A DNA stretch of 64,000 nt, taken from Gemmatimonadales bacterium. Lineage in GTDB: Bacteria; Gemmatimonadota; Gemmatimonadetes; Gemmatimonadales; GWC2-71-9. The DNA is taken from assembly GCA_965249575.1 (NCBI GenBank), contig OZ252244.1, forward strand, positions 142,612-206,611, written 5' to 3'. The position numbers were made by a program, and so were the translations under genes. Below, piece by piece: positions 15,792 to 33,360 of the stretch; positions within the stretch are counted from its first letter, which is position 1; each line of letters starts with the position of its first letter. The notes under the pieces were generated by a model that worked only from the letters and a program-made list of their open reading frames with translations, was not told the origin of the DNA and did no database searches.

Positions 15792-16178
15792 CTGGACTGA
15801 GCCTCCCATATTCTTGTGCCGCATAACAATATGACGTAGCTGAACCCCAGACGCCAACCTCCCCGGCGGCGCCGCGATCGTTGGAGGGCGGCTTTCCGGC
15901 ACGTCAGCCTCGCCTCAGTTGTCCAGTGGGGGCCGCCCGAGGGGCCGACTTGGCCTCGCCGCACCGCCCCGGGGGGGTACCGCCGGCACCGGCATGCTTG
16001 ATGCAACCTGAGGTCTCTGGTGGTTCTCGGGCGGTGGGAACCCGCCCGACCGCCGCGGCGGGCACGCCACGCAAGTGCATATCTCACTTGACGATCCTTG
16101 GCAGCGGGCGCAAGTTCGGCGGGTCAGCGCGAACGAAATCGCACGCCCCGAGCGCTCGACGGGAGAGAGCGACCCTAC

Positions 16179-18033
16179 ATGCAGTGCGCCCAATGTGCTA
16201 CACCTGTCCCTGAAGACGCGAGGTTCTGCCACAGCTGTGGCTCGCTGGTCTCCGACGCCGAGGGCCAAGCCGCCGCGACCGGGGCAATGGATGCATCGGC
16301 GTTCCAGCACATGGAGCAGCTCGTTCGCGACGACACCACTGGCGAGTTTGAGATCCTGCGCATGTTGGGACGCGGCGGCATGGCGATGGTGTACCTCGCC
16401 AATGAGGTCCACCTAGCCCGAAAAGTCGCCATCAAGGTCCTTCCGCCCGAACTGACCTTCGGCCACGGCGTCGAGCGCTTCAAGCGCGAGGCGAAGACCG
16501 CCGCCGCCCTGGACCATCCAAACATCGTTCCGATCTACCGAGTCGCATCCGGGGGGGAAATCTTCTGGTACGCGATGAAGTACCTCGAGGGGCAATCGCT
16601 GGACGACCTCTTGAAGGAGCGGGGCCGATTTTCCCTCGGCGAGACCATCGGGATCCTCGGACAGGTCGCAGACGCTCTGGACTACGCGCACGAGCACCGG
16701 GTCATCCATCGCGACATCAAACCGGCCAACGTCATGCTCGACTCCAGAAACCGCGTCGTGGTGACGGATTTCGGGATTGCCAAGGCACTGACCGAGGGAA
16801 CCCTGACGGCGTCGGGGTCGGTCATCGGAACACCGTACTTCATGTCCCCCGAGCAAGGGATGGGAAAACCGGTCACCGGTGCGTCCGATCTGTACTCGGT
16901 GGGGGTCATGGCCTATCGCATGCTCGCGGGCCAGGTACCGTTCGAGGGCGATTCGGCGATCGACATCCTTCACAAGCACTGCATGATTCCCGCGCCGCCG
17001 CTCGATTCCGCATGGCCCGAAGCGCCAGCTCACGTCGTGCGGGCACTCCAGCGGACGCTGGAAAAAGCGCCGGAGCGACGGTTCCCGACGGTCAACGCGT
17101 TTGTCGAGGGTCTCAAAGCGCCCGGAGCCCAGGACGCCGAGCGGGAGGCGGCGACCGTGATGGTGCCGAAGGAGGCCGCGTCAGGCGTCGCCTCGCGGTC
17201 CCTCGATGCGGCATCGCAGCGCACGGAGATCATGGAGTCCAGCGGTGACCCAACGGGCCGGACCAGGCCGCCCATGCAGACGAGACCGCCGGCACCGAAG
17301 CCGAAGTCCCGCTGGCCGGTGCGCGTGGCAGCCGGGGTTACGCTGCTGGCCGCTGGAGCGGGAGCCGCGTGGTGGTTCTCGAACCAACCCGCGTCGACCA
17401 CGGCTGCCGGTGCCACCGACGCCGCGGTGCTCGCGTCCGCCGTCAATCGATCCGACCGAGCCCGCCGGAACCGCGTTGGCGCCGCCGGTCGATTCGACGC
17501 CGACGGCTGCCGCACTTCCACCACCTCCCGAGCCCACCACCGGGCGCGTGACAGTTACAGGTTTGCCATCGGGAGGAACGGTGAGCGTGAATGGCCGCCG
17601 GCAGACGGGGACGACGTTCGAACTTTCAGAGGGCCGGCACACCATCCGCATGGCCGCCGCCGGTTACGAGCCGGTCACGGACAACATCAACATCGTGGCC
17701 GGCGAGGCGCTGCGGATCCGATTCGTGGCTCGGCGAGTGGCCCAGGCGCCGCCTCGGGTGACGCAGACACCTCCGGCCCGGCAACAGCCGGCTCCACCCC
17801 CGGCACCCGCGGCGCCTACCAGGGGGGTCTTGCTCATGCGCATCAACCCGTGGGCCAACGTGTTCATCGACGGCGTGGAGCTGGGGGCGAAGACCACCGT
17901 CCGAGACACGTTGACCGCCGGCGCTCACGCGCTTCGCCTCGAGCGAGAGGGATTCGCAACGGTGGACACCACGATCGCCATTACCGCGGGTGCGGACACC
18001 CGGATGAACGTACGCCTGAGGAGTCAGCCATAA
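16179..18033 (+). pseudogene. Hanks-type Ser/Thr protein kinase (zinc ribbon - kinase - TM - 2x PEGA) with an apparent +1 frameshift near 17400-17445
   Basis: Frame 0 from ATG 16179 gives the zinc ribbon MQCAQCATPVPEDARFCHSCG. The kinase domain is complete: GRGGMAMVY, VAIKVL, HRDIKPAN, DFGIAK, SPEQ. A TM helix VRVAAGVTLLAAGAGAAWWF follows. The PEGA-like domains GRVTVTGLPSGGTVSVNG...GYEPV and INPWANVFIDG...EREGFATV are in frame +1 (track ORF 17206..18033). That frame ends TAA 18031-18033 and overlaps the next ATG as TAATG. Confidence 0.8.
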
Positions 18034-18980
18034 TGCCGAGAACCATCGTGGCCCGCGCGGTATGGGTTGGAATCGCGATCGCGATCCTGCTCGCGCCGCG
18101 GTTGGCCTGGGCACAGGACGATCGGGACCAAATGATCGCCAATGCTCAGAGCGCCTACGACAACTTCGAGAGCGCCCGCGCTGCTCAGCTCCTCAGAACC
18201 GCGCTCAACCCCACGTTGGGCCCGCAGACCGGCGCGTGGGCGAGCGGGGGCCAGCTGCTCCTCCAGATCTTGATCGAAGAGGGTCAGACCACGACCGCTC
18301 GAGTCTGGGCGCCATGGGCTGTGCGGCTCGACCCGACGATGCCAATCGACAGCGTGACGTTCCTGCCGGCAGTCGTGCAGGCAGTCGTGGACGCGCGGGT
18401 GTTCGTGGGGCCACGGACGGCGGCCGACGTAGCGACGACGACGACATGGGATTGGAGCGACGTGAACTCCGGCAGCGCTACCGGCCGGGTGAGCGTCGCG
18501 CCATCGGCCCAGCAGGCGCGGGTGCTGCTCATCGGTGTGGGGCTCCTTCCTCCCGGTGGAGTGCGCGATCTCGCCGCCGGCAGCTATCAGATCGAGGCCG
18601 CGGCCGATGGCTTCGTGACCGCTCGCGTCACGCGCGAGGTGCTGCCCGGTGTCGCCACGACACTCGCCTTCGACCTGGTGTCCGACGCACCGGTCGCGCA
18701 AGCACCACCACCGGACGCGGCGCCGCCACCGGTAGCCGATACGGCCGAGGCGGCTCTACCCCAAGCACCTCCGCCTCCCGGCCCGGCGCAGCCCGAGCCG
18801 GAGGTCGAGCAGGGCGGAGGCTTTCCGGTAGCGGTGTTCGCGGTGCTGGGGATCGCCGGCGCGGGGGCCGCGGTGGCGGTGCTGGCAGGTGGCAAAAAGC
18901 CCGGACCGGTCACTAACGGGAACGGGCCCAACGGGCCCACCACCGGCGGCATCACCATCAGCGTCCCGGTAGATCCGTAG
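18033..18980 (+). CDS. Secreted, C-terminally membrane-anchored protein with PEGA-like domain and Pro-rich linker
   Basis: ATG 18033 is coupled to the upstream stop (TAATG). Signal peptide VWVGIAIAILLAPRLAWAQ, PEGA-like GSYQIEAAADGFVTARVTREV, a PPPDAAPPPV...PPPPGP stretch, and TM FPVAVFAVLGIAGAGAAVAVLAG. The track shows it only as the tail of the 960-aa ORF. Confidence 0.65.
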   Translation: MPRTIVARAVWVGIAIAILLAPRLAWAQDDRDQMIANAQSAYDNFESARAAQLLRTALNPTLGPQTGAWASGGQLLLQILIEEGQTTTARVWAPWAVRLDPTMPIDSVTFLPAVVQAVVDARVFVGPRTAADVATTTTWDWSDVNSGSATGRVSVAPSAQQARVLLIGVGLLPPGGVRDLAAGSYQIEAAADGFVTARVTREVLPGVATTLAFDLVSDAPVAQAPPPDAAPPPVADTAEAALPQAPPPPGPAQPEPEVEQGGGFPVAVFAVLGIAGAGAAVAVLAGGKKPGPVTNGNGPNGPTTGGITISVPVDP

Positions 18981-19004
18981 GCGCCCGAGGTTATGAGGTA
19001 GTTA

Positions 19005-21575
19005 ATGACCAAGCGTTTCGGTACCGCTTTCTGTCTCGTCGTCGCGGCCTAGCTGGCCTGCGACGAAGACCCGCTCCGTCCCTCGACGACCGGGAGTATC
19101 GTCGTTCAACTGGTGACTCCCGCGCCCGCGGTTCCTGCGGCGTCCGAAGCGGCGGAACCGGAGACGGGGTCACCAGTCTCGTCGGGGATCGCGCCTGGCG
19201 AGTCGAACGACGGTGACGCGGAGGAAGAGGGGCTTTCCCTGAGCCGAGTCCCGGCGGGCGCGGCGGCCCGAGCTGCCGCCTCGCAGACGAGCACCGCCTC
19301 GGCGCTCGTGCTCGACTCGGTGCGGGTCTCGGTGGCCGGACCGACACCCCGCACGGTCGTCGCTCGGACGCCGAGTGGTGGCGTATTCAACGTCACCGTC
19401 GATCAACTCAACCCGGGCACCTACGCGGTGGCGGTCGAGGGGGTCTCAAACAACCAGGTCGACTTCTTCGGGCAGTCGACCGGCGTATCGGTCAACGCCG
19501 GCCTGGCGACGACCACGCCGGTCACGTTTACGTCGTTCCGGCCCATTCTGGCCACCTTCACCCCGAATCCCACGACGTCCCTGGTCCTCCCGGTGACCTT
19601 CAGCGCCGTCCCCCTCGCGACGGGCTACCGCGTGGCGTGGGATACCGACATGGCGTTCACCAATCCGACCACGCTCGATGTGGGGGTGCAGACGAGTGGC
19701 GACATCGCGGTGACGGACGTGGGGACCTACTACGTAACCGTCCAGGCACAAAACCCCATTACGGGCTTTGGGCGGGCGAGCGACCTGGAATCGGTCGACG
19801 TCGTCACGGATATTACCTCGAGCGGCGACGATGCAGGATCTGCGCCGTTGCTCGGGTTCGGGATCGGCATAAACCAGACTCTCTCCGACCTGAACATTTT
19901 CCCGGACACCGATGTGGACTGGTTCCAGTTCCAGGCGTGCGCCGGAGACTCCGTGTTCGTCGAAACGTTCGCTGACGGGCTGGTTCCACCGTCGAATCTC
20001 AACACCTTTCTGCACCTGTTCGCATCCGATGGGACCACCGCACTCGATGCCAATGACGATCTGGACACCAACACCGTCGACTCGTACGTCGAGGCCGAGC
20101 TGCCCGCCGACGGCGTCTACTACATAACCGTCGAAGCCTCCAACGCCGCCACGGTCGGCCACTACGAGCTGGACCTCCAGGTTTGGGAGGGCGCCAACAA
20201 CAACGGAACGTCCTGCGGTCCGCTGGCCACGGCAGTGGCCGTGTCGCCGGATGGCGCCTCCAACACCGTAGGGGGTTTCTCGACCTTCGTCGCGACAGCC
20301 TTCGACGTTGGAATGAACCCCATCCCCGGCAAGTTCATCAACTGGGCCTCGCTGAACCCCAACGTCGCGACGGTCGACGCTTCGGGTCAGGTGACGGCCG
20401 TCGCCGCCGGGCAGGCGATCATTTCGGCTGAGGCCGATGGTGCCAAGGACTATGCGGTCTTCACCGTCGAGGAAGCCGCGGCGACCTTCCCGGTGAATAT
20501 CTGGGCCGCGGACATCGCCATGCAGACACCGCGACTACGCGATGTGTGGGGAACCGCTCCGGACAACGTGTGGGCGGTGGGAAGCGGCTCGACCATCATG
20601 CACTACGACGGAGCGTCTTGGAACTCCGTGCCCCCTCCAGTCACCGGCCAATTCCTACACGGTATTTGGGGCAGTTCCGCTGACAACATCTACACAGTGG
20701 GGGGCAATGGGACAGTCTTCCACTACGACGGCAACGGCTGGGCCGACGTTACCCCGAGTTCCGGATTCACGACGGAGATCCTGACTGGTGTCTGGGGATC
20801 GTCACCCAGTGACATCTACGCCGTGGGCTTCGCGGGAACGATCGCACATTACGACGGGAGCGCGTGGAGTATCGTGACCCCCGCTCCGACCTCAGAGGCG
20901 CTCCGGGACGTGTGGGGCACATCGGAAAGTGATGTCTGGGCGGTGGGCAATATGGGAGCGATCTTGCATTTCGATGGCACGTCGTGGAGCGCGGACCCGG
21001 CCTCCGGAATCCTCACGACGGAAACGCTGCAGAGCATCTGGGGGTTCGCCGCCGACGATATCGAGGTCGTCGGCAACAACGGCACTCACCTCCACCGCAA
21101 CGCGGTGGGTTGGTCAGATCAATCGTCGGCCGGATACCTGGGATCCCCGCTGTTTGGATTCTGGGGCTCCACTGCGGGCGAGACCGCCGGCGGCGTGGTC
21201 ATCCTGGATTTCGGGATCGCCAAGGCCCTGTCAAAGGACGGCGGGAACCTGTCGATCAGCGGTGAGCTGCTCGGCTCGCCGGCGTACCTCAGCCCGGAGC
21301 AGGCGGCAGGATCGAAGGACCTGGACCACCGCGTAGATATCTACAGTTGGGGAGTGGTGAGCTATCAACTGCTGACCGGCCGCTTGCCCTTCACCGGCGA
21401 CTCCGTGCAACAGATGCTGTACCAGCACATGACCGCTCCACCACCCCCACTCCGGGATCTTCGACCCGAGACACCGCCCAGACTCATCACGGTCGTCGAG
21501 CGCTGCTTGGAGAAGGACCCGGATCGACGGTGGCAAGGCCTCGCCGACGCGGCGCGAGAGCTGGAAGCGCTTTAG
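19005..21575 (+). pseudogene. Lipoprotein-type surface protein (PPC domain, Big_2 domain, 5+ propeller-like repeats) with an in-frame TAG in the signal peptide and a C-terminal fused Ser/Thr-kinase C-lobe fragment
   Basis: ATG 19005 is in frame with track ORF 19113.. and reads MTKRFGTAFCLVVAA-TAG(19050-19052)-LACDEDP. PPC-like DVDWFQFQACAGDSV...NDDLD...GVYYITVEA. Big_2-like VAVSPDG...ATVDASGQVTAVAAGQAIISA. Five repeats of about 48 aa have the form WG(T/S)xxxD(V/I)(W/Y)AVGxxGT(I/V)xHYDGxxW. From about 21195 the sequence is ILDFGIAKAL...YLSPEQ...DIYSWGVVSYQLLTGRLPF...CLEKDPDRRW, which corresponds to kinase subdomains VII-XI only. Confidence 0.7.
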
Positions 21576-21655: not shown

Positions 21656-23056
21656 ATGCCCACACCGGGCTCCGACGCCCAGCCGCTCCGTGTGGCCATC
21701 ATCGGCTCCGGTCCGGCTGGATTCTACGTGGCCCAGCGGCTCCTCATGCAGAAAGAGCACGTCGTTCAGGTCGACATGTACGACCGGCTCCCCGCCCCGT
21801 TCGGTCTGGTACGATTCGGCGTCGCCCCCGATCATCAAGAGATCAAGGCAGTTACCCGCGTCTTCGACAAGGTGGCGGCGCGAGAGGGTTTTCGGTTCTT
21901 CGGCAACGTCGACATCGGCGAGCATCTCACACTCGACGACCTCAAGCGGCACTACCATCAGATCTGTTTCGCGACGGGCGCGCAGACGGACCGCCGCATG
22001 GGGATCCCGGGCGAGGACCTCGACCGGAGCCATGCCGCAACGGAGTTCGTAGCCTGGTATAACGGACACCCCGACTACCGGGACAGCGAATTCGATCTCT
22101 CGGTCGAACGGGTCGCGGTGGTCGGCGTGGGGAACGTCGCGGTTGATGTCGCGCGCATCCTTTGCCGCTCGCACGAGGAGCTGGCAGCGACCGATATCGC
22201 CGACTACGCTCTCGATGCACTCAACCACAGCCGAGTCAAGGAAGTTTACATGCTCGGCCGCCGGGGCCCCGCACAAGCTGCGTTCACGAATCCGGAGATT
22301 TGCGAGCTGGGCGAAATGCCATGCGCCGACATCGCCGTCCGCACGGAGGAGGTCGAGCTAGACGACCTGACCCGCGCGGTGGTCGAAGAGCGGAAAGACA
22401 AGTCAACCAACAAGAAAATCGAGATTCTCCAGGGATTCACCACCCTCGTTCCAAAGGGACACCCGCGTAGGCTCACCGTACGGTTCCTGGTCTCTCCAGT
22501 AGAACTGATCGGAAACGACGCCGGCGAGGTGACGGGACTCCGACTGGTGCGAAACGTCCTGCGCTCGAGCGAGAACGGGACGCTGCGTCCCAAGGCAACC
22601 GACCGGTTCGAGGAGCTGCCCGTCGGCATGGTGTTTCGATCGGTCGGATACCACGGCATCCCGTTGCCCGATCTCCCCTTCGACGAGAAATCCGGTGTCG
22701 TTCCGAACGAAAAGGGTGGAGTAGTCGATCTCGGCGGCAATCGGATAGCCGGGATCTACGTGAGCGGATGGATCAAGCGCGGGCCGACCGGCGTGATCGG
22801 AACCAATAAACCCGACGCAGCGCAGACGGTGCGCACGATGCTTGAAGATCGGGGTACGGGAAACACACTCGACCCTGCATCACCCGACCCACAGTCCATT
22901 GAACGCCTGATTCGTGACAGAAGCCCCGCGTTCGTATCGTACGCCGATTGGCAGGCTCTCGATCGCCTCGAGATCGAACGGGGGGAAGTGATGGGGAAAC
23001 CTCGCGCGAAGTTCGTGACGGCGGACGAGATGCTCGCTGCGCTCAACCGGGCCTAG
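21656..23056 (+). CDS. Ferredoxin-NADP+ reductase, FprA/adrenodoxin-reductase-like
   Basis: 466 aa with the N-terminal FAD fold VAIIGSGPAGFYVA and a second nucleotide fold VAVVGVGNVAVDVARIL. Overall architecture matches FprA-type reductases. Confidence 0.85.
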   Translation: MPTPGSDAQPLRVAIIGSGPAGFYVAQRLLMQKEHVVQVDMYDRLPAPFGLVRFGVAPDHQEIKAVTRVFDKVAAREGFRFFGNVDIGEHLTLDDLKRHYHQICFATGAQTDRRMGIPGEDLDRSHAATEFVAWYNGHPDYRDSEFDLSVERVAVVGVGNVAVDVARILCRSHEELAATDIADYALDALNHSRVKEVYMLGRRGPAQAAFTNPEICELGEMPCADIAVRTEEVELDDLTRAVVEERKDKSTNKKIEILQGFTTLVPKGHPRRLTVRFLVSPVELIGNDAGEVTGLRLVRNVLRSSENGTLRPKATDRFEELPVGMVFRSVGYHGIPLPDLPFDEKSGVVPNEKGGVVDLGGNRIAGIYVSGWIKRGPTGVIGTNKPDAAQTVRTMLEDRGTGNTLDPASPDPQSIERLIRDRSPAFVSYADWQALDRLEIERGEVMGKPRAKFVTADEMLAALNRA

Positions 23057-26116: not shown

Positions 26117-26247
26117 TTCCGTCCCCCCCCCGGCGCGATAGGCCTAATGCACGGGTGCTTCTACCGGGTAGCCGATCGTTTCGCAGTACCCGACGTGCGA
26201 GCCCCCAGTGATCGTCCGTAATCCCGAACGCCGGAGGATAGTGACTT

Positions 26248-28674
26248 GTGGCCATCGGTTGCGCAACCATCCAAGATTTGAAACACCACCGGCCGGTGGC
26301 CATCAAGGTGCTGAACCCGGACCTGGCCGTTCAGAGCGAGCGTTTTCTCCGCGAAATCAAGATCGCTGCAAGCCTTCAGCACCCCCATATCGTCCCGCTC
26401 TACGACTCAGGCACGACCGGCGACCTCTTGTACTACGTCATGGCGTACGTAGAAGGCGAGTCACTCCGCGACCGGCTCGCCCGGGAAGAGCAGCTGTCCC
26501 TCGACGACGCGATTCGGGTCACGTCCGAGGTCTCCAGCGCGCTCGCGTACGCTCACTCGCACGGTGTAGTGCACCGAGACGTCAAGCCGGAGAACATCTT
26601 GCTGTCGGGCGACACCGCCGTCGTCGCGGACTTCGGCATCGCCCGGGCGCTGGAGGCAGCTGGCGACCACCATCTGACCCAGACCGGAACGGTCATCGGG
26701 ACGCCGTTTTATATGAGCCCGGAACAGGCCACCGCCGGCGGAGAGATCGATGGCCGGAGCGACCAATATAGCCTGGCGTGTGTTCTTTACGAGTGTCTGG
26801 TAGGGGAGGCTCCGTTCACCGGCCCCACACCGCAGGCAGTAATGGCCCGGCACTCGCTCGACGCCGTCTCTCCACCCACGATCGTGCGCGACACCATCCC
26901 CGATGCCGTCGAGGACGCGCTGCTCAGGGCACTTTCCAAGCTCCCAGCCGACCGTTTCGCTACGACCCACCTGTTCGCCGAGGCCCTCCACACACCCTCG
27001 GGGACCACGGGCGCACGCCGGCATACGGCATCGGCCCACCCGATGGCACCCCGCCGCAGCCGATTGATACAAAACCTGGCACTGGCTTTCACTCCCCTCA
27101 CGATCGTGGCGGCGGCGTGGGGTGCGTGGTCGTGGTGGCGAAACGCTGGGCCCTCGGACACGGAGCCCCCGGGCGGCGGACTGGATCCTCATCGAATCGC
27201 CGTGCTCTACTTCGACGACCTCGGAAACGATCAGAGCTTGGAACACTTGGCGGGCGGATTCACCGAGGCACTCATTCAGGAGCTCGGCCGCGTGTCCGCG
27301 CTGCAAGTAATCTCCCGAAACGGCGTCTTGCCGTACCGCGACGCGCGGGTGGCGCCGGACAGCATTGCGCGCGCGCTCCGCGCCGGGACCCTCGTCGAGG
27401 GCACGGTCGCCGAAAGCGGCGGTCGCCTGCGGGTGAGGGTAAGTCTCATCAACGCGCGCACTGGGACCACGTTTGGCAGCAAGACGCTCGAACGTCCTCG
27501 AACGGAGATCTTCGAGCTTCAAGACGACCTCGCCGGTGAGGTCTCGATCTTCCTCCGCGAGCGCCTCGGGCAAGAGATCGCGCTGCAGCGAAGCCGCGCC
27601 GGTACGGAGAACGCCGGCGCCTGGGAACTCCTGCAAGAGGCCCAGCAGGCCGCTCGTGATGCCGACGCCCTCCTTGCCACAGGCGATGCCGCCGCGGCAT
27701 CCAGACTCCTCACGCAGGCGGATTCTCTGCTCGGTGCAGCGGAATCGCGCGATGAGCGCTGGGTGCGCCCCGTGGTCGAGCGCGCGCGCGTGGCCTACCG
27801 ACAGGCCCGAGTCGCCGAGACGGTCGGAAAGCCGGATTGGCTGAGGACCGGCGTCAAGCACGCCGAACGCGCCCTGGCACTCGAGCCCCGCGAGGCCGAC
27901 GCGCTCGAGCTGCGGGGCACCCTACGTTACTACAGCTGGATTTTCAGCCTGACACCGGATCCCGCGGCAGCGTCGCAGGCGTTCGCGGAAGCGGAGGCGG
28001 ACCTCCGCGCCGCGGTCGCGGCGAACGGCGCGCAGGCATCCGCGTGGAGCACGCTGAGCCACCTCCTGTCGAACAAATCCGAAACGGCCGAGTCGAAGCT
28101 GGCCGCTCTTCGAGCGTACGAGGCCGATCCGTATCTCAACACAACCGACGTGAGTCTGTGGCGGCTGTTCACCAGTTCCTACGATCTCGAAGATCCGGTC
28201 GAGGCGGCGCACTGGTGCGACGAAGGGGGCAGGCGTTTCCCCGCGGACTTTCGGTTTGCAGAGTGCCGGCTGTGGCTACTCACGTTCGCCGGCCAGCGGC
28301 CGGACATCGAGAAGGCCTGGGATCTCCTGGATCGCTACGAGGAGCGGGTCAGTCCGAGCGACCGGGAATACCGTCGCTTGCGGGGACAGATGGCCGTCGC
28401 GGCCGCGCTGGTACGGGCGGGACTACAAGACAGTGCCCGGACCGTGCTAGCCGCGTCGCGAGCCGACGCCTCCGTCGATCCCGCCAGGGACCTGATGTAC
28501 CTCGAAGCGTTCGTCCGCAGCATACTGGGCGATCACGACGAAGCGATCAGGCTCCTGACCACGTTCCTCGCGATCAATCCGGAGCAGCGTTCCTCATTGA
28601 CGGAGGATGAGTCCTGGTGGTTCCGGAAGCTCAAGGCCGACGAGCGCTTCAAACGGCTCGCGGGCGCGGGTTGA
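26248..28674 (+). CDS. Ser/Thr protein kinase with TM, TolB-like and TPR-rich C-terminal region; 5' end truncated (no Gly-rich loop)
   Basis: The callable ORF starts at GTG 26248 inside beta2 (VAIGCATIQDLKHHRPVAIKVL). HRDVKPENILL, DFGIARAL and SPEQ are present, followed by TM LALAFTPLTIVAAAWGAWSWW. Then IAVLYFDDLGND...LVEGTVAESGGRLRVRVSLINA (TolB_N-like) and TPR-like helices. In frame immediately upstream I read ...NAGG-TAG-TGA-L. Confidence 0.8.
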   Translation: MAIGCATIQDLKHHRPVAIKVLNPDLAVQSERFLREIKIAASLQHPHIVPLYDSGTTGDLLYYVMAYVEGESLRDRLAREEQLSLDDAIRVTSEVSSALAYAHSHGVVHRDVKPENILLSGDTAVVADFGIARALEAAGDHHLTQTGTVIGTPFYMSPEQATAGGEIDGRSDQYSLACVLYECLVGEAPFTGPTPQAVMARHSLDAVSPPTIVRDTIPDAVEDALLRALSKLPADRFATTHLFAEALHTPSGTTGARRHTASAHPMAPRRSRLIQNLALAFTPLTIVAAAWGAWSWWRNAGPSDTEPPGGGLDPHRIAVLYFDDLGNDQSLEHLAGGFTEALIQELGRVSALQVISRNGVLPYRDARVAPDSIARALRAGTLVEGTVAESGGRLRVRVSLINARTGTTFGSKTLERPRTEIFELQDDLAGEVSIFLRERLGQEIALQRSRAGTENAGAWELLQEAQQAARDADALLATGDAAAASRLLTQADSLLGAAESRDERWVRPVVERARVAYRQARVAETVGKPDWLRTGVKHAERALALEPREADALELRGTLRYYSWIFSLTPDPAAASQAFAEAEADLRAAVAANGAQASAWSTLSHLLSNKSETAESKLAALRAYEADPYLNTTDVSLWRLFTSSYDLEDPVEAAHWCDEGGRRFPADFRFAECRLWLLTFAGQRPDIEKAWDLLDRYEERVSPSDREYRRLRGQMAVAAALVRAGLQDSARTVLAASRADASVDPARDLMYLEAFVRSILGDHDEAIRLLTTFLAINPEQRSSLTEDESWWFRKLKADERFKRLAGAG

Positions 28675-28897: not shown

Positions 28898-29905
28898 ATG
28901 AGGCGACGATTCGTTTGGTACTTGCCCGTAGCGACCGCGCTGCTATTCGCGAGCTGCGCCGATCGCGACCAGTCCTCGCCGACCGAGCCACCGTCGTTCT
29001 CCGTGGCCCCCCACAGCGGGGCCGCCGCTTCAGACGTCCGGGATATCCAGGCGCAGATCAGGGCGCTCTTCCCGAGGGACGACCGTGGGCTTCAGCACGC
29101 GGCGCTCAAGCGGTTCCGCAATATCGTGCGAGCACTACGGCGGGGTCGAGTGGAAAGCGCTCGGCGAAAGACGGTTCGATTCGTCGATTTCACGCTCCGT
29201 AAGTTCCAGCAGGAGCGGCTCCTAGATCCCAACGGGGCCGAACCCCCAACCACCGAGGAAGCAGTCTGTACGCTGATCGCATCGATGCTCCACCTCGTCG
29301 GACTTCCCAGCCCCGCGGCCTGCCCACTCGGACCCAATTCGGCCGCGGCCGTCGTGGGACGGAGCGGTGGTCTCGTCGTCACAGGCGCAGAGGAGGCCGG
29401 GGTCGACATTCCGCGCGGATCGCTCGAGGAAACGGTGGTGGTCACGGTTCAACTGATCTCTGGGCCATTCGATGAGAGCGGGGGTCCACTGAACACCGAG
29501 CTCGATCAGTTCGGACCGTTCTATCAAATCGAGACATTCCCTGCGGTCTCGAGCTTCAGCGGTGATGTCGTCGTCGGTTTGTGCATCGAGGAGTTGGAAG
29601 AGGGTTTCCGCCTAGCGCATAACAACGCCGAAGGAACCGGCATCGAGATCCTCCCACTCGCTGGCGCTCCCTTCCTTGACTGCAATGCCGACATCGGGAG
29701 CCGATCGATACAGGACGACGAACCGGCGACGATATGGGGCCGCGCGGTACGGCTCGCCAAACGCCTGTTCGCTCCAGCTCCTCTGCATGCTGGGAACGCC
29801 CTGATCTTCGGTGGCCTCGGCGGCTCCTCGGGCTCGTTCAGTCCATTCGGCGCGGTGGATACTCAGGCATCCACGCCGGATGAAGGCGGTCCAGACGACT
29901 TCTAA
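28898..29905 (+). CDS. Hypothetical lipoprotein
   Basis: AGGAG lies before ATG 28898. Signal peptide with lipobox LLFASC. 335 aa of normal composition. No family recognised. Confidence 0.55.
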   Translation: MRRRFVWYLPVATALLFASCADRDQSSPTEPPSFSVAPHSGAAASDVRDIQAQIRALFPRDDRGLQHAALKRFRNIVRALRRGRVESARRKTVRFVDFTLRKFQQERLLDPNGAEPPTTEEAVCTLIASMLHLVGLPSPAACPLGPNSAAAVVGRSGGLVVTGAEEAGVDIPRGSLEETVVVTVQLISGPFDESGGPLNTELDQFGPFYQIETFPAVSSFSGDVVVGLCIEELEEGFRLAHNNAEGTGIEILPLAGAPFLDCNADIGSRSIQDDEPATIWGRAVRLAKRLFAPAPLHAGNALIFGGLGGSSGSFSPFGAVDTQASTPDEGGPDDF

Positions 29906-29929
29906 CTGACTCCGGCTTTTGTGAAAATC

Positions 29930-29973
29930 GGCCGGCTCCCGCGCGATGCGGGGGCTGGCCGCTTCTTTTTTTT
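29930..29973 (+). terminator. Rho-independent terminator, probably bidirectional
   Basis: 13-bp stem GGCCGGCTCCCGC / GCGGGGGCTGGCC (two G-U pairs), 5-nt loop, then GCTTCTTTTTTTT. On the opposite strand the stem is followed by GATTTT. It sits between the convergent genes ending at 29905 and 29990. Confidence 0.7.
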
Positions 29974-29989
29974 GCTTGCTTGGTGGCAG

Positions 29990-31651
29990 CTACGCCGCGG
30001 CGGCCGGAGCGGAGCGCTGCTCACCGTCAGGGACCAGCTTCAACTCTACGAGAAAGCGCGAGCCGGCACCCTCCTCACCCTCGACCCAGAGCCGGCCACC
30101 CAGGCCCTCGACGATGTTCTTGCTGATGGCTAACCCGAGGCCCGCTCCTCCGTGCGTCCGAGTGGCGGAGCGCTCAAGCTGCATGAACTTCTCGAAGATC
30201 ACCTCGCGCCTGTCCGCCGGAATACCTGGCCCCCGATCCGCGATTTCGACTACGGCGGACTCGTCGTCGACGCGCCATTGAACGGTCACCGGCGCGTCGG
30301 GCGGGGAGAACTTAATGCCGTTCGACAGCAGGTTCACGATCACCTGTTCCAGCGGATCGCGGGCAGCCAGCACGGTTGCCGCGCGGTCACCGTCCGACTC
30401 GATCTCCACGCCGCGATCCCGCGCGAATCCGCTCACCGCCTCTACCGCCCGGGCAACAGCCCCCTCGAGCGAGACCGGGGCCAATTCGAACTCGAAGCGT
30501 CCGCTCTGCATTCGTGACATTTGCAGCAGGTCGTCGACCAAGCGGACCAGACGGTCGAGATTGCGCAGCGCGATATCGACGAACTCCCACATCGCTCGCG
30601 GGAGGTCGCCAGCCGCCCCGTTCTTGATGAGACCCAGCGAGGTCTTGACGGACGTGAGTGGCGTACGCAACTCGTGGCTCACGATCGATACGAATTCGTC
30701 CTTTGCCTCCTCCGCCGCGGCCTCACGGGTGATATCGCGATACAAAATGAGATGACCAAGCATCGACCGCTGGTCGACGACCGGCACGACGGTTCGCTGG
30801 CAAACGGATTTCTGTGGAAAGGCGAACTCGACCCGATCCCGGAGCGGTTCCGCCTCCGCGTCGAGCGCGGCGACTTGCGACGAGAGATCGTTCGGCTCGC
30901 TCAGGCAACGGGCGAACGCCTGATTGACCTGGGCCACGGGTGATCCCATCACCACTTCCCACGGCATTCCGATCAAGTCCGCTAGCGCGCGGTTCGCATG
31001 CACGACCCTACCATCCGCGACCATGAGAATCGCCGCGTCACTCGCTTCGATCAGTGCCTTGAGCCGCGTCCGTTCGGACAGCACCTTCGCGTTCTGGAGC
31101 GCGAGCCTCTCACGCTGACTCTCGATGGTCGAGAGGAGCTTCGAGTAGTGCAGGGATGTCTCGATTTGTCGCGCGAGGAGTGCCGCAAGCTCGAGATCTT
31201 CTTGACCATACCGCTCGGACTCTTTGGAGCCGAAGTTGAGCGCGCCAATGATCTCACCGTCCACGTGAAGCGGAACGATGATGGCTGACAACGCACTCTC
31301 GTTCGGCAGCCGGATGCCCTCGGTCCCCGGAAGGTCCGGGACGAGAAGCGGCTCGCCAGTCCGAATCACCTCCCCCGTCAGCCCCTGCGCTAGCGGAAAG
31401 CGGCCCCTCCCCTCTATGAATCCATCGCGTTCAGCATCGAAGAGCGTGTGAAGTTCATAGTGATCCCCTTCCTCCGAGACCAGCGCGACGCTGGCCCGCC
31501 GGAACATCATTACCCGTTGAAGCTTGGTGATGGCCGCCTGGAAGATCTCTTCGAGATCGAACGTCGTGTTGATGAGGGTCGCGAGCTCGCCGACGACTTC
31601 CAGTCGTTCCGAAGCCATCGTGTGGCGCGTTTCCAACGCGGTCGGCATCAT
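29990..31651 (-). CDS. Cytoplasmic sensor histidine kinase (GAF - PAS - HisKA - HATPase_c)
   Basis: 553 aa. H-box SHELRTPLTS, N-box LLSNGIKFS, G-boxes DRGPGI and GGAGLGLAI. GAF-like N-terminus and no TM segment. ATGA overlap with the Hpt gene. Confidence 0.9.
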   Translation of the reverse strand: MMPTALETRHTMASERLEVVGELATLINTTFDLEEIFQAAITKLQRVMMFRRASVALVSEEGDHYELHTLFDAERDGFIEGRGRFPLAQGLTGEVIRTGEPLLVPDLPGTEGIRLPNESALSAIIVPLHVDGEIIGALNFGSKESERYGQEDLELAALLARQIETSLHYSKLLSTIESQRERLALQNAKVLSERTRLKALIEASDAAILMVADGRVVHANRALADLIGMPWEVVMGSPVAQVNQAFARCLSEPNDLSSQVAALDAEAEPLRDRVEFAFPQKSVCQRTVVPVVDQRSMLGHLILYRDITREAAAEEAKDEFVSIVSHELRTPLTSVKTSLGLIKNGAAGDLPRAMWEFVDIALRNLDRLVRLVDDLLQMSRMQSGRFEFELAPVSLEGAVARAVEAVSGFARDRGVEIESDGDRAATVLAARDPLEQVIVNLLSNGIKFSPPDAPVTVQWRVDDESAVVEIADRGPGIPADRREVIFEKFMQLERSATRTHGGAGLGLAISKNIVEGLGGRLWVEGEEGAGSRFLVELKLVPDGEQRSAPAAAA

Positions 31652-32025
31652 GAGGTCGGATCGAATCGGGACTGGTACAGCCGCACGGAAGACGCCAACC
31701 GTTCAAGACCAGCCACGCCATCGGCGAGTCCCTCGGGAGACAGTGCCCCGCCCTCCCGCCACCGCCGTCCGAGATCCTCCAGGAACGCCGCCGGCTCCGA
31801 GAGGTCGTTCGCGCCAAACGATGCCGCGGTCCCCTTCAATGAGTGCGCTCCGCGATGGAAGGTCTCGATCATTCCTTCGTCGCGGCTCTGCTCGAGCACC
31901 TCCAATGCCGAACGCATCTTCTCGACTCGGTCCGGCAACCCAGCCGCGAATTCACGCCTCACCAAGGTCAGCGGGTCGAGATCGCTCTCGATCGGGGCCT
32001 CGGGAAGTCTAGGCCTTGCTTTCAA
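31648..32025 (-). CDS. Stand-alone Hpt (histidine phosphotransfer) domain protein
   Basis: 125 aa with the phospho-accepting motif FHRGAHSLKGTAASFGA. TTG start overlaps the end of the upstream receiver gene by 17 nt. Confidence 0.8.
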   Translation of the reverse strand: MKARPRLPEAPIESDLDPLTLVRREFAAGLPDRVEKMRSALEVLEQSRDEGMIETFHRGAHSLKGTAASFGANDLSEPAAFLEDLGRRWREGGALSPEGLADGVAGLERLASSVRLYQSRFDPTS

Positions 32026-32380
32026 CGCACAGGTCCTTGATCCGTGTGGCGAGCTCCTCCGGCTCGAATGGCTTGAACGCGATTCCGGCAGCGCCCGCCA
32101 ACACAGCCTCTGACTCCTGCATCTCTTTGCGCGCCGTCAACAGGACGACCGGGATCGAGGTCGTCTCGGGATCTGCTCGCAGCCGACGACACACCTCGTA
32201 CCCATGCATCCCTGGCATCATCACGTCCGCGATCACCGCATCGGGCTGAACACGGCGCACGGTCTCGATCCCCTCCACTCCGTCTGCGGCAACTGCCACC
32301 TCCCATCCCGCCGTGTACTCGAGTGTCAGCTTGATCAGCTTGCGGAGATCCGGATCGTCGTCGATTACCACGACGCGCAT
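32009..32380 (-). CDS. Single-domain response regulator (REC only, 123 aa)
   Basis: ATG 32380 (MRVVVIDDDPD). Phospho-acceptor D in AVIADVMMPGMHG, then LLTARK and AFKPF. No output domain. Confidence 0.9.
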   Translation of the reverse strand: MRVVVIDDDPDLRKLIKLTLEYTAGWEVAVAADGVEGIETVRRVQPDAVIADVMMPGMHGYEVCRRLRADPETTSIPVVLLTARKEMQESEAVLAGAAGIAFKPFEPEELATRIKDLCVESKA

Positions 32381-32501
32381 AGGAGCATCCTCTCGTTTTG
32401 CCACCAATGATGAGACCTCCGGACGTTCATCTCGCACGACTGGCCCGGCGTCATCGCGACTCAGCGCTCGGTCAACTTTCACAGATCGCGCGGAACACGA
32501 A

Positions 32502-33116
32502 TCATCCGGTAACCGATGGTCCGTCCCGTTTCCCATCTCCCGCACCGGGGGCGTGCTCACCCGGGTCGATCTGAGACGCGTCCAACGGCACTGGGATGGG
32601 TGCCTCCGGCCGTCGGTCGGCACCTTGGTGACCGATGAGGCGGCCCGTGCCCACGGAGAGCAGTACCAGCAATCCCACAGCCGCTGACCGAAGTAGCCGC
32701 CGCCTGAGAGTCGGTCGGAGTCGCGCCCGCAGCCTGACGTTTGCCTGCCGAACGGCGGCATTCTCCGCCGCTCGCTCAACCGCCGCGGCCAAGTGCCCCA
32801 TGTTCACGGGCTTCGTCAAGAAATTCTCGGCGCCCAGACGCATTGCCTCGACCGCCGGGCCCAGTTCGCCGCTGGCGGTGAGCATGATGACCATTGCCCG
32901 CTTCTTCCTCAGGATCTCGAGCACTTCGAGTCCCGACATGCCGGGCATGGACAGATCGAGCACCGTCACGTCCGGTCTCGCTCGCTCGTGCAGAGCAAGA
33001 CCCTCCGACCCAGACTCCGCCTCGTAGACTCGATGTCCAAGGCGCTCGAACTCGGTCCGGAGAAGCCGGAGCATGTCCGGGTCATCGTCTATGAAAAGCA
33101 CAGTACGGGAACTCAT
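32502..33116 (-). CDS. Response-regulator receiver domain fused to a C-terminal transmembrane helix and Pro-rich tail
   Basis: ATG 33116 (MSSRTVLFIDDDPD). Has VTVLDLSMPGMSG, MLTASG and LTKPV. This is followed by RRRLLRSAAVGLLVLLSVGTGRLIG (TM) and ...PEAPIPVPLD.... No DNA-binding or enzymatic output is visible. Confidence 0.8.
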   Translation of the reverse strand: MSSRTVLFIDDDPDMLRLLRTEFERLGHRVYEAESGSEGLALHERARPDVTVLDLSMPGMSGLEVLEILRKKRAMVIMLTASGELGPAVEAMRLGAENFLTKPVNMGHLAAAVERAAENAAVRQANVRLRARLRPTLRRRLLRSAAVGLLVLLSVGTGRLIGHQGADRRPEAPIPVPLDASQIDPGEHAPGAGDGKRDGPSVTG

Positions 33117-33360
33117 GGATCCCTCCCCTAGGCACCGCCTGATGTTATCGGCCGCCGGACAGCGCTTCTTGAGGATGGAGGGGCGCATTTCTCCCACCAC
33201 TCAGAACGGGGAATCGAGACACTAGACGATTTCCAGAAGTGATGACGCGGCAAGCACTTAGAGTATACGGGAACCGCGTGATGGCGCGCGGGTCTCCAGG
33301 GAGGGCCCCGGAGACGTTCGGGTCTGCCTTCTTGGACGGAGAGCTGCTACGGCGTTAGCG

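Follow-up and report, generated by a model that had tools for sequence, protein, structure and literature searches.

Anatomy of the chimeric open reading frame

We analysed a 64,000-nucleotide stretch of contig OZ252244.1 of a Gemmatimonadales bacterium (the window; positions are counted from its first nucleotide), in which one open reading frame (ORF) joins a truncated beta-propeller to the C-terminal lobe (C-lobe) of a Hanks-type kinase. We refer to this ORF as the chimera and to the gene from which its C-lobe would derive as kinase 2, with kinases 1 and 3 lying on either side of it in the same window. The features of the chimera and of the sequence immediately upstream are as follows.

18995-19061, plus strand: ancestral lipoprotein translation start and signal peptide, from reading of the sequence, alignment with the paralogue L081:3072 and G+C content at third codon positions (GC3)
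19113-21575, plus strand: chimeric ORF, 820 amino acids, GTG start, TAG stop at 21573-21575
19911-20135, plus strand: PPC (bacterial pre-peptidase C-terminal) domain, residues 267-341, Pfam PF04151, E = 4.5e-8
20331-20435, plus strand: Big_2 Ig-like domain, residues 407-441, Pfam PF02368, E = 2.2e-7
20538-21149, plus strand: five complete beta-propeller blades, residues 476-679, from homologue alignment, AlphaFold2 model and Foldseek
21150-21182, plus strand: sixth-blade stub LFGFWGSTAGE, residues 680-690, first strand motif only
21177-21197, plus strand: junction interval, from BLASTP alignment limits, Pfam and NCBIfam envelopes, and tblastn
21186-21572, plus strand: Hanks-type kinase C-lobe only, from Pfam, NCBIfam and PknB alignment, running from the strand before DFG to the subdomain XI arginine and ending ...ELEAL
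21431-21575, plus strand: kinase tail (last 47 codons and stop), the sole part of the chimera kept in five conspecific contigs

The ORF at 19113-21575 is identical (100%) to the database protein P0001, the only member of its 90% cluster, which is known from a single contig of 3,859,289 bp. An earlier reading of the window made without database searches (the sequence-only reading) had described five complete repeats and the start of a sixth running in frame into a kinase C-lobe, and alignment, Pfam and the AlphaFold2 model all bear this out; the blades, which share the motif L..(V/I)WG....D.WAVG..G.I.HYDG..W, recur with a period of 39-43 amino acids, shorter than the 48 or so given there. The AlphaFold2 model of residues 455-820 has a mean pLDDT (predicted local distance difference test) of 83 and consists of five four-stranded blades and a helical C-lobe, both modelled with confidence (pLDDT about 90), with a disordered stretch that takes in the junction and the activation loop. 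The sixth-blade stub scores 50-70 and has no predicted strand. Foldseek searches with the blade region matched seven-bladed propellers such as Ycf48 and WRAP-T, and the sequence homologues P0002, P0003 and P0006 have seven blades and a closing LLRG strand, P0002 also sharing the order of domains (PPC, Big_2, propeller) with the left part of the chimera. Homologue alignment, model and structural matches thus agree that the ring is incomplete, with five blades and 11 residues of a sixth and no closing strand, and since the homologues are seven-bladed with a closing strand, the propeller here cannot close.

The kinase portion is equally partial. The Pfam Pkinase match covers only positions 137-253 of the 263 in the profile (residues 695-808, E = 3.8e-15) and the NCBIfam PknB_PASTA_kin match only profile positions 143-267 (residues 692-819), envelopes which support the proposal of the sequence-only reading that the C-lobe alone is present. 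It aligns to chain residues 153-275 of Mycobacterium tuberculosis PknB (3f61), past the catalytic loop, and full-length kinases used as tblastn queries match only from homologue residue 152 onward. The C-lobe motifs of the Hanks kinases are present, including DFG (residues 699-701), SPE (727-729), DIYSWG (742-747) and DRRW; the N-lobe motifs and the HRD loop are missing, and neither a Gly-rich loop (GxGxxG) nor a VAIK lysine nor an HRD catalytic loop occurs anywhere in the 820-amino-acid ORF, as had been noted from the letters. Among 68 full-length homologues, 23 columns of the C-lobe reach 80% conservation or more; the chimera retains the conserved residue at 20 of these, its three changes being conservative, and kinases 1 and 3 each retain 21. 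The modelled C-lobe superposes on PknB at 1.0-1.5 Å over about 100 residues.

The junction

Alignments of propeller homologues stop at or before residue 689, those of kinase homologues begin at residues 691-697 (BLASTP), and tblastn matches to kinases begin at nucleotides 21195-21198. The BLASTP limits narrow the junction to 21177-21197, within the interval of 21171-21200 proposed previously; the peptide that spans it reads ...FWGSTAGETAGGVVILDFGIAK.... The coding signal in GC3 and codon usage runs in one frame, unbroken, from about 19000 to 21575 with the junction included, and base composition is likewise continuous. No repeat of 14 nucleotides or more is common to the junction and the rest of the 64-kb window, where only chance-level 12-13-mers were found, so boundary repeats were rejected as a basis for either a mis-join or homologous recombination. 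Neither a kinase N-lobe matching the missing half nor blades 6-7 were found elsewhere in the window, and the reciprocal product of an inversion or translocation was rejected on these grounds. A search of JGI metagenome contigs with the junction-spanning codon pattern returned no match.

A nonsense codon within the signal peptide

The public start of the ORF, GTG 19113, has neither a Shine-Dalgarno sequence nor an export signal. The reading frame extends further upstream, opening with MTKRFGTAFCLVVAA, a stop codon and LACDEDPLRPSTTGSIVVQLV. There, a Shine-Dalgarno sequence (GAGG, 18995-18998) lies six bases before ATG 19005, and translation from this ATG gives a signal peptide with a lipobox, MTKRFGTAFCLVVAA, stop, LAC, in which the cysteine codon is at 19059-19061. 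The stop, TAG at 19050-19052, is codon 16 and falls inside the lipoprotein signal peptide; TAG is an ordinary stop in this genome, and the chimeric ORF itself ends with one. The paralogue L081:3072, which starts MKRAFIVGTLVTLGLIVACDDDSLGPATTGSISV, aligns with the window sequence from Met1, and the GC3 and codon-usage signal in the lipoprotein frame is already present from about 19000. Because of these two observations we conclude that the ancestral gene began at 19005 and is now interrupted by a nonsense codon. The paralogous gene that adjoins P0002 on its contig (L081) begins MKRAFIVGTLVTLGLIVACDDDSLGPATTGSISVRV.

This stop codon is absent from the sequence-only reading and was found in the present analysis. 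The description given there, of an exported lipoprotein fused to half a kinase, holds insofar as a lipoprotein signal peptide does exist upstream, from ATG 19005, and fails insofar as no uninterrupted signal peptide leads to the L-x-x-C motif, so that the ORF as encoded is not an intact exported lipoprotein. As a second, independent lesion, the nonsense codon shows the gene to be inactivated already.

The architecture is a singleton

In a search of 5.8 billion proteins, none other than P0001 spans both the propeller and the C-lobe, so orthologues with a conserved fusion, which the sequence-only reading had proposed as the mark of a genuine architecture, did not appear. The next-best match, P0002, has 43% identity across 66% of the query length and covers the propeller only, and kinases match only the last 15% of the query, at no more than 48% identity. 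A HMMER scan of 1.84 billion representatives likewise gave no match spanning the junction in a single stretch, besides P0001, among the best 150; these are crowded by giant multi-propeller proteins whose repeat scores sum, and the scan excludes only fairly close fusion orthologues.

A search with the C-lobe alone returned short kinase fragments of up to 57% identity and no parent kinase. The closest kinase homologues are 590-1047 amino acids long and all run far past the kinase domain, at the end of which kinase 2 stops. An origin of the C-lobe as a recent copy of kinase 1 or kinase 3 was rejected, the identities being 45% and 38%, respectively. Public data contain many short stand-alone kinase-fragment ORFs (P0121-P0175, 106-236 amino acids), some on contigs of more than 100 kb, so that annotations of metagenomes commonly include truncated Hanks-kinase ORFs.

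On its 3.8-kb contig (L081, JGI 3300027917), P0002 sits between a divergent Zn-ribbon Ser/Thr kinase and the paralogous lipoprotein gene, an arrangement that echoes the kinase-lipoprotein neighbourhood of the window. P0002 seems to be without the signal peptide and first domain that its neighbour carries.

Deletion haplotypes in conspecific contigs

Conspecific contigs were found through P0325, the 90% cluster of the oxidoreductase encoded downstream of the chimera (five members, four besides that of the window). The contigs, L082-L086 from five ENA assemblies, are 96-99% identical to the window at the nucleotide level and are therefore conspecific. The propeller gene is absent from all five. 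What remains of the chimera is the kinase tail, which together with its TAG stop lies about 80 nucleotides upstream of the oxidoreductase gene in every haplotype and differs from that of the window by five substitutions (three synonymous and two nonsynonymous differences, Sd 3 and Nd 2), too few to inform. Since the tail occupies the same place in all haplotypes, kinase 2 was resident there in their common ancestor, and the chimera therefore joins two neighbouring genes.

There are two arrangements. In haplotype B (L082), window position 17121 is joined to 21434. In haplotype C (L083-L086, four ENA assemblies), 16695 is followed by a 120-nucleotide piece (18512-18631) and then by 21432. All of the junctions in B and C are clean deletions with 1-9 nucleotides of microhomology. 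Both joins of haplotype C are in frame and give rise to a 256-amino-acid ORF, a mosaic that combines the N-lobe of kinase 1, ending shortly before HRD, with 40 amino acids of the secreted protein encoded between kinase 1 and the lipoprotein and the last 47 amino acids of kinase 2. Three of the four assemblies annotate it as a protein kinase (9152-9922 in L083 and L084, 8926-9696 in L086); the fourth (L085, 2x coverage) has the same junctions, but the mosaic stretch is called as two shorter ORFs. The right-hand breakpoints of B and C fall within 3 nucleotides of one another (21431-21434) and the left-hand ones differ, and neither haplotype can be derived from the other by one deletion. The shared right-hand breakpoint could be a hotspot, a coincidence or the result of a recombination event.

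Across 16.7-40.9 kb of the window, the conspecifics carry 8-9 clean gene-truncating deletions of 0.2-7.5 kb within about 25 kb, again with 1-9 nucleotides of microhomology. Six to seven of these lie beyond the locus itself, at 23.3-40.9 kb, and none occurs at 7.8-16.7 kb. Of the six deletions in haplotype C, four are in frame. B and C often cut the same genes at different breakpoints (23284/24498 versus 23517/24914, and 25727/30351 versus 25857/33368). The genes inside the deleted segments are database singletons, as is the chimera, and the long haplotype of the window has therefore been sequenced only once. We conclude that the locus is undergoing piecemeal deletion in the population and that deletional erosion here is a real and ongoing process. 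To call the chimera a 'rare snapshot', as in the sequence-only reading, is an overstatement: such scars are frequent in the population, and the relatives carry 6-7 others in a span of about 25 kb.

Comparison with relatives, which the sequence-only reading had suggested as a check, places the kinase tail upstream of the oxidoreductase in the five conspecifics, but recovers no intact propeller gene followed by a kinase. In species-level genomes anchored on the oxidoreductase, neither the propeller gene nor a syntenic kinase was present among the best 80 loci, the best matches among these being 55-68% identical, from Gemmatimonadota and other phyla, and non-syntenic.

The substitutions that separate the window from its conspecifics are unevenly distributed. 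Divergence is about 3.5% to the right of the locus (21.4-23.5 kb) versus about 1% to the left, and the whole 15.9-23.5 kb stretch is more divergent from the relatives than its left flank. There are two dense clusters, one intergenic with 15 changes (15906-15987), and one with 11 changes in 37 nucleotides (16199-16235), ten of them spaced at multiples of three; both look like small recombination or gene-conversion patches. The idea that haplotype B is a mosaic of A-like (long-form) and C-like DNA was unsupported once substitutions were binned, the excess divergence residing in two small patches. Half of the high synonymous divergence in kinase 1 comes from the one 37-nucleotide patch; this divergence was therefore not read as evidence for prolonged purifying selection, nor was pN/pS (nonsynonymous relative to synonymous polymorphism) relied on.

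Neighbouring genes

Other features relevant to the locus are listed here.

16179-18033, plus strand: kinase 1, with Zn-ribbon, complete kinase domain and transmembrane segment in one frame to about 17450; frameshifted
21656-23056, plus strand: FAD-dependent oxidoreductase (ferredoxin-NADP reductase-like), Pfam Pyr_redox_2
26248-28671: kinase 3, Pkinase match from profile position 21
28898-29905: ORF without a Pfam match, within the segment 28898-33200 that is deleted in relatives
29990-31651, minus strand: GAF-PAS-HisKA-HATPase histidine kinase, in the segment deleted in relatives
31651-32136, minus strand: Hpt protein, in the segment deleted in relatives
32012-33200, minus strand: two response regulators, in the segment deleted in relatives

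Kinase 2 is not alone in being damaged. In kinase 1, two PEGA domains (17449-18030) are encoded in the +1 frame relative to the kinase domain, evidence of a frameshift near 17400-17500, and the PEGA frame terminates in a stop that shares bases with the start codon (ATG) of the gene after it (TAATG, 18031-18035). Kinase 3 lacks the Gly-rich loop that is present in all of its homologues and is directly preceded by TAG TGA (26239-26244); about 80 nucleotides upstream of it, in another frame, the sequence FYRVADRF is a possible remnant of the missing N-terminus. All three Hanks kinases of the window are therefore damaged. Coding frames elsewhere in the window look continuous, so the assembly is not generally error-ridden. 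The two-component module at 28898-33200 adjoins kinase 3, and the DNA lost in relatives codes for signalling proteins, namely kinase 3, the GAF-PAS histidine kinase, the Hpt protein and the two response regulators.

Origin of the chimera

What is observed at this locus is the anatomy of the ORF, its singleton status, a nonsense codon, and deletion polymorphism among conspecifics. On this basis we consider it probable that the chimera is a recent deletion scar in a pseudogene and not a working domain architecture. The features expected of a pseudogene are seen together here, with a TAG in the signal peptide, a truncated propeller, half a kinase, a singleton cluster, and absence of the gene from five conspecific contigs. 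The ancestral locus would have had the order pyruvate:ferredoxin oxidoreductase (minus strand), kinase 1, secreted protein, lipoprotein, kinase 2 and FAD oxidoreductase, with a lipoprotein composed of PPC, Big_2 and a roughly seven-bladed propeller. A single illegitimate deletion of the short-microhomology kind, in the lineage of the window, would then have taken out the propeller gene beyond the sixth-blade stub, the spacer between the two genes and roughly the first 150 codons of kinase 2 (its 5' half, with the N-lobe and catalytic loop), a loss that we estimate at about 0.7 kb or more. The join would be in frame by chance, and the ORF therefore continues as far as the stop codon that belonged to kinase 2. 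Ribosomes initiating at 19005, the real start, would terminate after 15 codons, and any product would be an unclosed propeller with half a kinase, a half that cannot bind ATP or catalyse phosphotransfer; in the kinase fold there is no phosphorylation without the ATP-binding lobe and the catalytic loop. It is the origin of this particular junction by deletion, the order of the two lesions and the lack of function that we infer. Judged from the sequence, the truncation would be recent, because the coding signal is undiminished and 20 of 23 conserved C-lobe columns are kept.

Several points weigh against this reconstruction. An undecayed C-lobe would be expected as well if the piece were still under selection, which we regard as much less likely. 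The junction has been seen in one assembly only, and none of the relatives compared has the intact ancestral arrangement, in which a complete kinase 2 would follow the seven-bladed propeller gene. Since the deleted sequence is beyond reconstruction, microhomology cannot be demonstrated for this junction. In all haplotypes kinase 2 ends right after the kinase domain, unlike its homologues of 590-1047 amino acids, and it may have been an unusually short stand-alone kinase or have been truncated earlier. It is also conceivable that the TAG in the signal peptide is an error of base calling.

The sequence-only reading had offered an in-frame deletion joining two genes or else a mis-join in assembly, and the singleton status, the TAG lesion, the deletions in conspecifics and the retained kinase tail favour the former. 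We consider a mis-join unlikely; in that case the source contig would wrongly attach the propeller gene to a kinase gene belonging to another part of the genome or to a different strain. In its favour, the junction is known from a single assembly, several structural haplotypes of the locus exist in the sample or in relatives of it and would make assembly harder, and the elevated divergence of the 15.9-23.5 kb stretch could reflect haplotype switching. However, there is no repeat of 14 nucleotides or more to mislead an assembler, base composition and codon signal continue over the junction, and the right side is in its native place, the kinase tail adjoining the same downstream gene in five of five relatives, so that a mis-join would require the assembly to have passed over about 1 kb locally and to have preserved the frame by luck. 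It would also leave the independent TAG lesion in the left gene unexplained, and junctions of the same type recur in the four independent haplotype C assemblies, such that deletions of this kind are real. Capture of a kinase fragment is a very improbable alternative, in which an internal kinase piece of about 390 nucleotides from elsewhere was inserted behind a broken propeller gene, as filler DNA in break repair or through homology-facilitated illegitimate recombination, with no deletion between two genes. This would account for a kinase piece that lacks both its 5' half and the C-terminal extension of its 590-1047-amino-acid homologues, and is in keeping with the small recombination patches at the locus and the unexplained coincidence of breakpoints at 21431-21434 in the relatives. 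Against it, the same tail and stop are found at the same place in sister haplotypes that have no propeller gene, which means that the kinase sequence already occupied the locus before the haplotypes diverged; a single deletion explains the data more simply.

A genuine new architecture, in which the cell produces a propeller and C-lobe protein and puts it to use, perhaps as a docking or decoy module resembling a pseudokinase, seems to us very unlikely. The join is in frame, the C-lobe keeps its 20 of 23 conserved positions, including DFG, SPE and DIYSWG, and is predicted to fold (pLDDT about 90), and another in-frame mosaic, of 256 amino acids, is fixed in four related assemblies. Yet no orthologue shares the architecture, the N-lobe, catalytic lysine and HRD loop are missing, the ring of blades does not reach its full number, a stop codon interrupts the export signal while the alternative GTG start has no Shine-Dalgarno sequence, and the whole gene is deleted in sister strains; moreover, an exported lipoprotein and a cytoplasmic kinase lobe belong to different compartments. 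A broader proposal is that the locus is a hotspot at which short-microhomology deletions reshuffle a signalling cluster within one species, often in frame, and that some of the mosaics are expressed and selected as catalytically dead kinase-lobe scaffolds, possibly including the propeller and C-lobe ORF re-initiated at GTG 19113. We hold this to be a long shot, and if true, it would mean that new genes arise by deletion-driven domain shuffling.

Under the preferred reading as a deletion scar, the public 820-amino-acid 'protein kinase domain' ORF is best regarded as a pseudogene, to be counted neither as a kinase nor as a new architecture. Biologically this is ordinary, a pseudogene formed through deletional erosion, but it is unusually well illustrated by coexisting structural variants and provides a clean, dated example of bacterial gene loss, with three structural states of one locus in strains that are 1-4% apart. 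The long form bears a deletion scar, a nonsense codon and a frameshift; in the two shorter forms all junctions are precise microhomology junctions, and one of these forms is itself an in-frame three-gene mosaic. The block being lost comprises three Hanks kinases, a histidine kinase, an Hpt protein and two response regulators, all of them signal-transduction genes, a hint that selection on environmental sensing has relaxed in this lineage.

Comparison with known systems

The C-lobe of the chimera (residues 693-820) is about 41% identical to that of M. tuberculosis PknB (PDB 1MRU, 3F61) over a stretch that begins with the strand preceding DFG and extends to the domain end; the predicted fold superposes at 1.0-1.5 Å. 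Unlike PknB, the chimera has no Gly-rich loop, VAIK lysine, alpha-C helix or HRD loop, and no juxtamembrane segment, transmembrane segment or sensor region follows the domain. It cannot be a kinase.

The N-terminal 690 residues share their domain order with PPC-Big_2-propeller lipoproteins from Gemmatimonadota and Myxococcota metagenomes (P0002, P0003 and P0006), for which there is no curated family; they are 39-45% identical to P0002 and its neighbour, and the lipoprotein signal peptide is also shared. These homologues have seven blades and the LLRG closing strand, often with extra domains, whereas the chimera has five blades and eleven residues and a stop in the signal peptide. In structural searches the blade region matches Ycf48/HCF136-like seven-bladed propellers best (PDB 2XBG, 5OJ5; Foldseek E about 1e-9), although at 13-16% sequence identity the resemblance is at the level of fold only, and the ring of the chimera is incomplete. 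PknD of M. tuberculosis has a complete cytoplasmic kinase, a transmembrane helix and a complete extracellular NHL propeller. The same two kinds of module thus occur there in one polypeptide, but the order and topology are reversed, the chimera having a truncated propeller followed by half a kinase with no transmembrane segment between them.

Fusion and truncation pseudogenes that result from deletional bias are exemplified by Mycobacterium leprae and Sodalis. The locus described here resembles them in having multiple lesions per gene, clean microhomology deletions, strain-variable loss and damaged neighbours. Our search of the literature on pseudogenes in such lineages found nothing relevant. 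That bacterial genomes have a deletional bias is reportedly a general principle set out by Mira, Ochman and Moran in 2001. The present case differs from those examples in its shallow divergence, with conspecifics only 1-4% apart, and in that the erosion is concentrated in one cluster of signalling genes.

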